From NCBI GenBank assembly GCA_038850385.1, contig JAWCLX010000001.1, forward strand, positions 31,670 through 55,998: a DNA stretch of 24,329 bases, read 5' to 3'. A program made the position numbers and the translations under genes. This document shows positions 2,691 to 20,770 of this stretch, in pieces (within the stretch, counting starts at the first letter, position 1; the number at the start of each line of letters is the position of its first letter). Source of the stretch: Candidatus Bathyarchaeia archaeon. GTDB taxonomy: Archaea > Thermoproteota > Bathyarchaeia > 40CM-2-53-6 > RBG-13-38-9. The notes below the pieces were generated by a model. That model had not been told where the DNA came from. It ran no database searches and saw nothing but the letters and a program-made list of their open reading frames with translations.

Positions 2691-2702
2691 CAATCTTTAT
2701 TT
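2691..2702 (+). promoter_or_regulatory. TATA-like element for the tRNA-Tyr gene
   Basis: TTTATTT at 2696..2702. Typical archaeal spacing would put the transcription start near the G run at 2726-2728. Confidence 0.5.
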
Positions 2703-2738
2703 GGATTCCTCTTTGAGTCACCTCTGGGTCCCGCGGAA

Positions 2739-2954
2739 CCCGCGGTAAGGTGGAGGCGACCGCCCCGTAAGCTCAGCCTGGTAGAGCTTCCGATCACGCC
2801 AGTAACGTGAGGAGACGCTGTAGAGCTGCACCCAAGGTGCGGCCATCCAGCCTATCAGGCTAAAGACAGAGACCGGAGTGTCGCTGGAGAGCCTGAGAAG
2901 GCTCGGCGAATTCAAAATAGGCTTATGCCTATGAAACTCCGGCCCGCGGGACCA
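2739..2954 (+). tRNA. tRNA-Tyr(GUA) with five introns and genome-encoded CCA
   Basis: Exons 2739-2747, 2771-2792, 2817-2823, 2872-2887, 2911-2916 and 2938-2954 join to CCCGCGG UA GCUC AGCCUGGUA GAGC U UCCGG CU GUA GA CCGGA GUGUC GCUGG UUCAAAU CCGGC CCGCGGG A CCA. This is a complete 77-nt cloverleaf with the archaeal Tyr identity elements C1:G72 and A73. Anticodon at 2820-2822. Each intron ends in a 4-nt segment complementary to the upstream exon plus a 2-nt bulge. Confidence 0.93.
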
Positions 2955-3159: not shown

Positions 3160-3254
3160 TGGCGGGCCCGGTGGGATTCGAACCCACGATCTCCGGCTGC
3201 CCTCCCTCTATGGACCGAAGGCCAGCATCTTGATCCTGACTAGACTACGGGCCC
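3160..3254 (-). tRNA. tRNA-Arg(UCG) with one 16-nt canonical 37/38 intron
   Basis: Minus strand reads GGGCCCG UA GUCU AGUCAGGAUCA AGAU G CUGGC CU UCG G|UCCAUAGAGGGAGGGC|A GCCGG AGAUC GUGGG UUCGAAU CCCAC CGGGCCC G CCA. A20 and G73 fit Arg. Intron at 3199-3214, with GAGG pairing C32-C35. TTTAT on the minus strand near 3296-3300. Confidence 0.95.
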
Positions 3255-5920: not shown

Positions 5921-6262
5921 TTGATCGAATCATTTGAGGCTCAGTACAGACAGGAGACTTGGATAAGATACTTGGTCTACAGGGATCTCAGGGACAGGGG
6001 GTACATCGTCCGTGAATCCCGTAAGGTCGACTTTGAGATCTATGGGAAGGGGGCTGAGAGGCGGCTTGTCCATATAGTCTATGAGGGTGGAGAAGCCAGT
6101 CTTCGAGAGCTGACAACCCTCGTAAGATACGCGGCAAAGCAACATAAGGAGCTGATACTTGCGGTCATAGACAGGAGAACTGACCTCGTATACTACTCTG
6201 TAGGGGAGATGGACTTCCATAGAAGACCGGCTGGTTCAGGCTGGTTCAGTCAGGGTGTGTGA
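5921..6262 (+). CDS. tRNA splicing endonuclease (EndA) C-terminal-domain protein, probably a non-catalytic structural subunit
   Basis: YLVYRDLRDRGYIV, DFEIY and KELILAVID...DLVYY fit the EndA C-terminal fold. The KYG Tyr and the post-DFxVY His are not visible. An in-frame TAG at 5906 excludes an N-terminal domain. Confidence 0.8.
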   Translation: MIESFEAQYRQETWIRYLVYRDLRDRGYIVRESRKVDFEIYGKGAERRLVHIVYEGGEASLRELTTLVRYAAKQHKELILAVIDRRTDLVYYSVGEMDFHRRPAGSGWFSQGV

Positions 6263-20664: not shown

Positions 20665-20770
20665 TGGTGGACCGGGCGGGATTTGAACCCGCGACCTTCC
20701 GGTTTCTCGGCATAGCATGCGAACCGGACGTTCTTTGGCCGAGATGTATACCAAGCTGAACTACCGGCCC
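20665..20770 (-). tRNA. tRNA-Ala(CGC) with two 14-nt introns (21/22 and 37/38)
   Basis: Minus strand reads GGGCCGG UA GUUC AGCUUGGUAU|ACAUCUCGGCCAAA|GAAC G UCCGG UU CGC A|UGCUAUGCCGAGAA|A CCGGA AGGUC GCGGG UUCAAAU CCCGC CCGGUCC A CCA. G3:U70 is the Ala identity pair. Introns at 20734-20747 and 20704-20717. Confidence 0.94.

Follow-up and report, generated by a model that had tools for sequence, protein, structure and literature searches.

The tRNA-Tyr(GUA) gene of a hot-spring Bathyarchaeia archaeon was found to be interrupted by five insertions (positions 2739-2954, plus strand, of the window, i.e. the whole stretch of 24,329 nucleotides that was analysed). One of these, at positions 2748-2770, is very probably a genuine intron between A9 and G10 of a functional tRNA, with a relaxed HBh' motif that would form with the aid of the leader or co-transcriptionally and be processed by the splicing endonuclease EndA and the ligase RtcB. 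We infer cleavage and ligation from the geometry of the motif, from how it is conserved and covaries, from orthologues that lack the intron and from the enzymes encoded in the genome.

The six exons (2739-2747, 2771-2792, 2817-2823, 2872-2887, 2911-2916 and 2938-2954) are collinear on one strand within 216 bases, and the gene is thus neither split nor permuted. Exon 1 (2739-2747) spans C1 to A9 and comprises the 5' strand of the acceptor stem, U8 and A9; its sequence, CCCGCGGTA, was invariant in all 19 intron-bearing genes described below. It is separated from exon 2 (2771-2792; G10 to G30, with the D arm and the larger part of the 5' anticodon stem) by the 23-nt intron 1 (2748-2770). The other insertions are located at 30/31 (2793-2816, 24 nt; absent from the related genomes L007 and L018), at the canonical site 37/38 (2824-2871, 48 nt), at 53/54 (2888-2910, 23 nt) and at 59/60 (2917-2937, 21 nt). 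The last exon carries the 3' strand of the acceptor stem (2944-2950), A73 (2951) and an encoded CCA (2952-2954), and positions 2944-2953 pair with an element of the leader in the predicted precursor fold. Excision of the five insertions resulted in a 77-nt tRNA-Tyr(GUA) with a C1-G72 pair, for which ARAGORN predicted a full cloverleaf. We applied the standard bulge-helix-bulge (BHB) rule, by which the exon bases just ahead of bulge 1 form a 4-bp helix with the intron bases just ahead of bulge 2, and each of the two 3-nt bulges is cleaved after its second base. At the assigned cuts, all four central pairs and both 3-nt bulges were present for each of the five insertions, and cuts shifted by one base failed.

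The gene at 2739-2954 was called by neither ARAGORN nor Rfam, and a second tRNA-Tyr gene was not found in this genome. Hot-spring metagenome DNA contigs from public runs of one study matched the gene with zero differing letters, and a single contig of run X1 alone covered positions 2600-2985. Because these DNA contigs match without a difference, the 9/10 insertion is not an assembly artefact. Loose ends at window position 2764 were observed in runs X2 and X4 and point to a second, related strain in the same hot-spring samples, whose tRNA-Tyr hinge intron is of the sequence type of genomes G006 and G012.

The central helix of the 9/10 motif is formed by G4, C5, G6 and G7 of the acceptor strand (2742-2745) and the intron bases CCGT (2765-2768), with the pairs G.U, C-G, G-C and G-C. 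Bulge 1 consists of U8, A9 and the first intron base A (2746-2748), and bulge 2 of the last two intron bases A and A followed by G10 (2769-2771). Between them lies the inner hairpin h' (2749-2764), in which GGTGG (2749-2753) and CCGCC (2760-2764) form a 5-bp stem around a loop of 6 nt (2754-2759). An outer helix does not form because C3 (2741) opposes C11 (2772). With zero outer pairs the insertion is a relaxed HBh' BHB motif and not a strict hBHBh' motif; introns of the strict type are substrates of alpha4 or alpha'2 enzymes. When the 23 intron letters were shuffled, an inner helix of at least 5 bp together with four central pairs was obtained in 4 of 100,000 shuffles. The central helix takes up four of the seven bases in the acceptor strand, so that the acceptor stem and the BHB cannot form at once. 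The minimum free energy (MFE) fold of the precursor (2727-2954; -112 kcal/mol, z = -6.8), in which the inner hairpin also appears, holds the BHB together with a 10-bp helix between the leader and the 3' end.

The relatives of its hisS gene identify the organism as a member of Bathyarchaeia. We compared a sample of 301 genomes across this class, in 132 of which the tRNA-Tyr pattern was matched. The uninterrupted sequence, GGTA directly followed by GCTCAG, was present in 113 tRNA-Tyr genes, with full gene models for 23 of them, and 19 genes carried an insertion of 18-29 nt at the 9/10 point. The 19 carriers were the 13 matched genomes in the window's family, without exception, three genomes from a second family, one genome each from two further families of the same order and one genome from another order. 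In two of those families there were sister species without the tRNA-Tyr insertion, and one tRNA-Tyr gene of this type per genome was found in the relatives. Four central pairs were formed in 18 of the 19 insertions and three in the remaining one, the inner helix had 4-6 bp in all of them, and the CCG(T/C/A) element (CCGT, CCGC or, once, CCGA in relatives) as well as both bulges were kept throughout. An alignment of 16 distinct intron sequences showed pairing in 97% of cells, and in 98% of the cells of helix 1. All five inner-helix pairs had changes on both sides (e.g. G-C to A-U or U-A to C-G), and none of 500 column shuffles reached the observed pairing and covariation. When the partner was slid by 1-3 columns as a control, pairing dropped to 26-56%. 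The central helix is unable to covary because its exon side is fixed, and its only variable pair is G.U, G-C or, once, G/A.

These comparisons bear on a reading of the window made from sequence only, which had proposed an intron between A9 and G10 with a relaxed BHB on G4-G7 that lacks an outer helix and cannot coexist with a folded acceptor stem. Intron-less orthologues show the exact junction of CCCGCGGTA and GCTC, and the predicted junction is therefore the one actually present in them. The relaxed motif agrees with the covariation of the inner helix and with the precursor MFE fold, and this fold and the geometry uphold the incompatibility with the acceptor stem. The sequence-only reading had also named the tRNA-Tyr of relatives as the place to look for the same intron, and 19 genes there carry the insertion at exactly that point. 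Its range of 2746-2771 spans U8 to G10; the intron proper is 2748-2770, and G10 is 2771. Among about 340 genomes from other classes of Thermoproteota we found no case with a narrow intron-type pattern, the single extra match being a chance match upstream, and as the pattern was narrow this is a weak negative for lineages outside Bathyarchaeia. The sets of tRNA-Tyr introns differed widely among related genomes (L007, L008, L016, L018 and others), with gene lengths of 120-234 nt. The gene of L007 lacked the introns at 30/31, 53/54 and 59/60 but contained an insertion in the variable loop. Such differences are good material on intron gain and loss.

As exon 1 and the intron both end in A, a cut by EndA one base earlier, at 8/9, would lead to an identical mature sequence. 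The BHB rule, applied by hand, does fit 8/9 in the tRNA-Phe of relatives, with the central helix on C3-G6. In tRNA-Tyr, however, the 8/9 cut leaves three of four central pairs and no adjacent inner helix, compared to four pairs and 5 bp at 9/10, and the 9/10 register holds across the 19 genes with the pairing given above; we therefore consider the earlier cut very unlikely in this gene. The missing calls by ARAGORN and Rfam could also be taken to mean that the 9/10 insertion is retained in the mature tRNA as an additional hairpin, or that the gene is a decaying pseudogene. Retained between A9 and G10, the insertion would disturb the conserved core of a tRNA. Against both possibilities stand the invariant exons, the compensatory substitutions within the intron and an exact BHB geometry that would be pointless in an unspliced arm, and the gene is the sole tRNA-Tyr found in a genome whose relatives likewise have one such gene each. 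We regard either outcome as extremely improbable.

Upstream of the gene the leader contains a copy of the acceptor 5' strand, GGT followed by CCCGCGG (2727-2736, plus strand), which is the perfect complement of 2944-2953 (tRNA positions 66-75). A spacer of two bases (2737-2738) separates it from C1. This spacer is AA here and AT, CT or TT in relatives, and since it varies between genomes it does not represent U8-A9 of the mature tRNA. The leader copy accompanied the 9/10 intron in all 19 tRNA-Tyr genes that carry this intron and was absent from all 23 genes without the intron. Duplex energies between leader and 3' end were -17 to -23 kcal/mol for the intron-bearing genes compared to about -9 for shuffled leaders, and the mean for intron-less leaders (-4.3) equalled that of shuffled ones. 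Substitutions in the copy were few and either wobble-compatible or shortened the helix at its inner end, and the copy persisted in families with otherwise unrelated upstream leaders. In the MFE fold of the precursor the leader copy takes the place of the acceptor 5' strand within a tRNA-like body, from whose hinge the true strand projects together with the intron as a hairpin. A strict scan for the same combination of leader copy and acceptor elsewhere in the genome recovered only tRNA-Tyr; tRNA-Phe is outside the assembled part.

By eye, a TATA-like sequence, CTTTATTTGG, was noted at window positions 2694-2703, about 25 nt upstream of the leader copy, and its position would place the transcription start at about 2726, with the leader beginning with the copy. 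In intron-less tRNA-Tyr genes (L011-L013 and L119-L132) the last three bases of the leader were mostly GGT, AGT or TGT. These bases complement A73-C74-C75, and the precursor acceptor stem could therefore be up to 3 bp longer across the RNase P site.

Both copies of CCCGCGG are identical in this genome, so that the mature sequence alone cannot separate them, and it could be the first one (2730-2736) that serves as the true acceptor strand, with a longer intron removing the second. The more stable helix that the leader copy forms with the 3' end would agree with such an arrangement. Yet the two bases that follow the first copy vary (AA, AT, CT, TT) while U8-A9 behind the second copy is invariant, several genomes have changes in the first copy that would mismatch the acceptor stem (the leader and acceptor copies differ in genomes such as G005 or G008), and no BHB with an adjacent inner helix could be drawn by hand, as C2740 faces C2764. 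An acceptor strand at 2730-2736 is in our view hardly credible. A far stronger case can be made that the leader copy is the scar of the event that created the intron, for example a recombination or integration with a second 5' end, and that it has no role in splicing, the BHB being formed co-transcriptionally. The motif precedes the 3' strand by about 170 nt, and a 5' tRNA fragment upstream of a gene that acquired its intron through a mobile element has been documented (PMC3293823). The copy moreover retains GGT, the triplet found immediately before C1 in many intron-less tRNA-Tyr genes; this fits an old 5' gene end that was left behind when a second 5' end arrived with the intron.

The tRNA-Phe(GAA) genes of relatives also speak for a scar. 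A hinge insertion of 18-27 nt was found in nine related genomes (L019, L026 and L133-L139) compared to 34 with uninterrupted genes. A good leader copy was present in five of these nine and a degenerate one only in the other four, which all belong to one genus. It also preceded five or six of 12 tRNA-Phe genes without the insertion. The Phe leader copies read GCCGAGG in both groups. The occurrence of copies without an intron, and of introns with little copy, weakens a role of the leader as a helper of splicing; in tRNA-Tyr, copy and intron may simply be inherited jointly. What stands against a mere scar is that the tRNA-Tyr copy retains 8-10 of its 10 pairing positions in families with otherwise unshared leaders, that its changes preserve pairing (C to T resulting in G.U), and that it is gone from both intron-less genes with intron-bearing sister species (G019 and G020). 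We give the scar without a splicing role somewhat less than an even chance, and note that scar and helper roles of the leader copy are not exclusive.

The enzymes to which processing is attributed in our preferred reading, splicing at A9/G10, are encoded in the genome. A catalytic alpha subunit of EndA (183 aa, with N- and C-terminal domains) is located on another contig (L111:1453-2004, minus strand) and is most similar to the catalytic subunits of Sulfolobus tokodaii, Aeropyrum pernix and Pyrobaculum aerophilum. Within the window, 3 kb from the tRNA-Tyr gene, a short EndA-like protein of 113 aa (5921-6262, plus strand) consists of the C-terminal domain only. It matched EndA C-terminal domains including the 116-aa beta chain of Pyrobaculum (2zyz_A) and probably serves as the structural (beta) subunit of the endonuclease. 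Judged from these similarities, the predicted pair is the two-subunit, crenarchaeal-type arrangement that is linked to the cleavage of relaxed motifs. In the literature, (alpha-beta)2 enzymes are described as cutting HBh' and hBH motifs at non-canonical sites (PMC3239211, PMC5829648). An RtcB ligase and a full-length archaeal RNase P RNA are also encoded in the genome.

In the precursor, G4-G7 would pair with CCGU close to the intron's 3' end, U8-A9-A and A-A-G10 would form the flanking bulges, and the remaining intron bases would fold into the 5-bp hairpin. Cleavage by the (alpha-beta)2 EndA is predicted behind A9 and ahead of G10, and ligation of the exon ends by RtcB, with CCCGCGGUA followed by GCUC as the mature junction. 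For the BHB to form, the acceptor 5' strand would have to be unpaired, and co-transcriptional folding and the leader copy would offer two ways round its incompatibility with the acceptor stem. Along the first route the BHB would be complete about 170 nt before the acceptor 3' strand is transcribed. Along the second, the leader copy GGUCCCGCGG would pair with the 3' end, resulting in a tRNA-like precursor with the BHB hairpin protruding at the hinge. The leader copy may hold the 3' end in this way during motif formation, for which we see about an even chance. After splicing, the true strand would have to displace the leader copy and RNase P would have to cut off the leader. In nearest-neighbour calculations on the fully spliced RNA, the conformer with the leader paired to the 3' end was more stable by about 9 kcal/mol than a cloverleaf whose leader is free, because of three extra GGU:ACC pairs. 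The leader conformer would thus still be favoured after splicing, and removal of the leader needs something more. We speculate that the two conformers would become equally stable if RNase P first cut ahead of the copy. Removal of the leader by EndA was also considered and rejected, since by hand no BHB could be drawn at the -1/+1 junction.

A more far-reaching, tentative and rather doubtful possibility is that the hinge intron and the leader copy are one co-evolved device with a pseudo-tRNA fold, a programmed strand swap and removal by RNase P. The leader would stand in for the acceptor strand, the true strand and the intron would be displayed as a self-contained BHB hairpin, and RNase P might remove the copy in two steps. 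If true, maturation would here pass through an obligatory alternative acceptor stem, a pathway that to our knowledge has not been described for any tRNA.

Archaeal tRNA introns are said to occupy 'seemingly random' positions, and nearly all known to us leave the acceptor stem free to form. Non-canonical sites listed by Yoshihisa 2014 (PMC4090602) are 20/21, 22/23, 25/26, 29/30, 30/31, 45/46, 53/54, 56/57, 59/60, 'etc.', with an extreme case at 3/4 in the acceptor stem (Sugahara 2008, as cited therein). Neither 9/10 nor 8/9 is contained in this list, which ends with 'etc.', and neither was met in the available parts of PMC4033280, PMC3218864, PMC3239211 and PMC8450103 with a text search that is blind to the slash form. 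The available part of a preprint (10.64898/2026.10.13.758758) mentions 'junctions' without positions. Measured against these reviews, 9/10 is an intron site that is listed seldom if at all and is probably new, which the sequence-only reading had raised as a possibility. A literature search found no paper on tRNA introns in Bathyarchaeia. Three introns per gene are given as the archaeal maximum in two reviews (PMC4033280, PMC8450103).

Mechanistically the 9/10 intron is an ordinary BHB intron; its unusual features are the site, a central helix that draws on the acceptor strand, and the leader copy that accompanies the intron. It resembles the non-canonical BHB introns of Thermoproteales and other Thermoproteota, which are short (about 20-25 nt) with relaxed HBh' or hBH motifs and an EndA of the heterotetramer type, can occur several per gene and are missing from related species. 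It differs from them by its position at the acceptor/D-arm hinge, by a central helix built from the acceptor 5' strand and by the leader copy, as well as by its occurrence in Bathyarchaeia with five introns in one gene. As far as the available text on them goes, multi-insertion tRNA genes of a different phylum share up to five insertions per gene, and there too the usual annotators overlook many insertions around the D arm. That text names no 9/10 site and describes no leader copy, whereas here we find family-wide conservation and covariation. Split and permuted tRNAs (Nanoarchaeum, Caldivirga, Staphylothermus and Thermofilum; PMC3218864) are similar in that sequence outside the tRNA pairs to set the fold that presents the BHB. 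In contrast to these, the tRNA-Tyr gene is contiguous and in normal order, and its leader copy, which is no part of the BHB itself, pairs with the 3' end of the same tRNA and not with another transcript. For tRNA-Thr(GGU) of Caldiarchaeum subterraneum (Sugahara 2012, PMC3293823), a 5' tRNA copy likewise lies upstream of the gene version that gained an intron, and gain by recombination with an intron-carrying copy was suggested. In that case, however, the fragment is 1.8 kb upstream with a mobile element in between, whereas here the copy is 10 nt long and 2 nt from the gene with no element visible.

In the genome of the window (1.13 Mb, estimated to be 69% complete) 14 tRNA genes were detectable with Rfam and 15 with ARAGORN, and all but one had an insertion. 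It is probable that many multi-intron tRNA genes are hidden in this genome, as tRNA-Tyr was. Another Rfam tRNA match in the window (20668-20770, minus strand) showed two insertions, one in the D loop (21 nt) and one in the anticodon loop (17 nt), and was read by ARAGORN as tRNA-Ser(GCT) with one intron; one of the two calls is probably wrong. A tRNA-Arg(TCG) gene with an anticodon-loop intron of 16-19 nt was observed on the opposite strand (3163-3254, minus strand), downstream of tRNA-Tyr by about 200 bases. On a further contig (C44:3954-4060, minus strand) ARAGORN reported a 'tRNA-Stop (tta)' with an intron, most likely from a misread anticodon of an interrupted gene. Bathyarchaeia are a very abundant and uncultured group, and where much of their tRNA set is hidden from standard tools, genome quality scores and codon-usage inferences would be affected.

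With a splicing signal that is built from the acceptor strand, the endonuclease would be able to act on a precursor that is not yet tRNA-shaped, and the conserved leader copy points to a simple way in which the cell might handle such a precursor. The presence and absence of hinge introns among close relatives, in two different tRNAs, further provides material on tRNA intron gain and loss.
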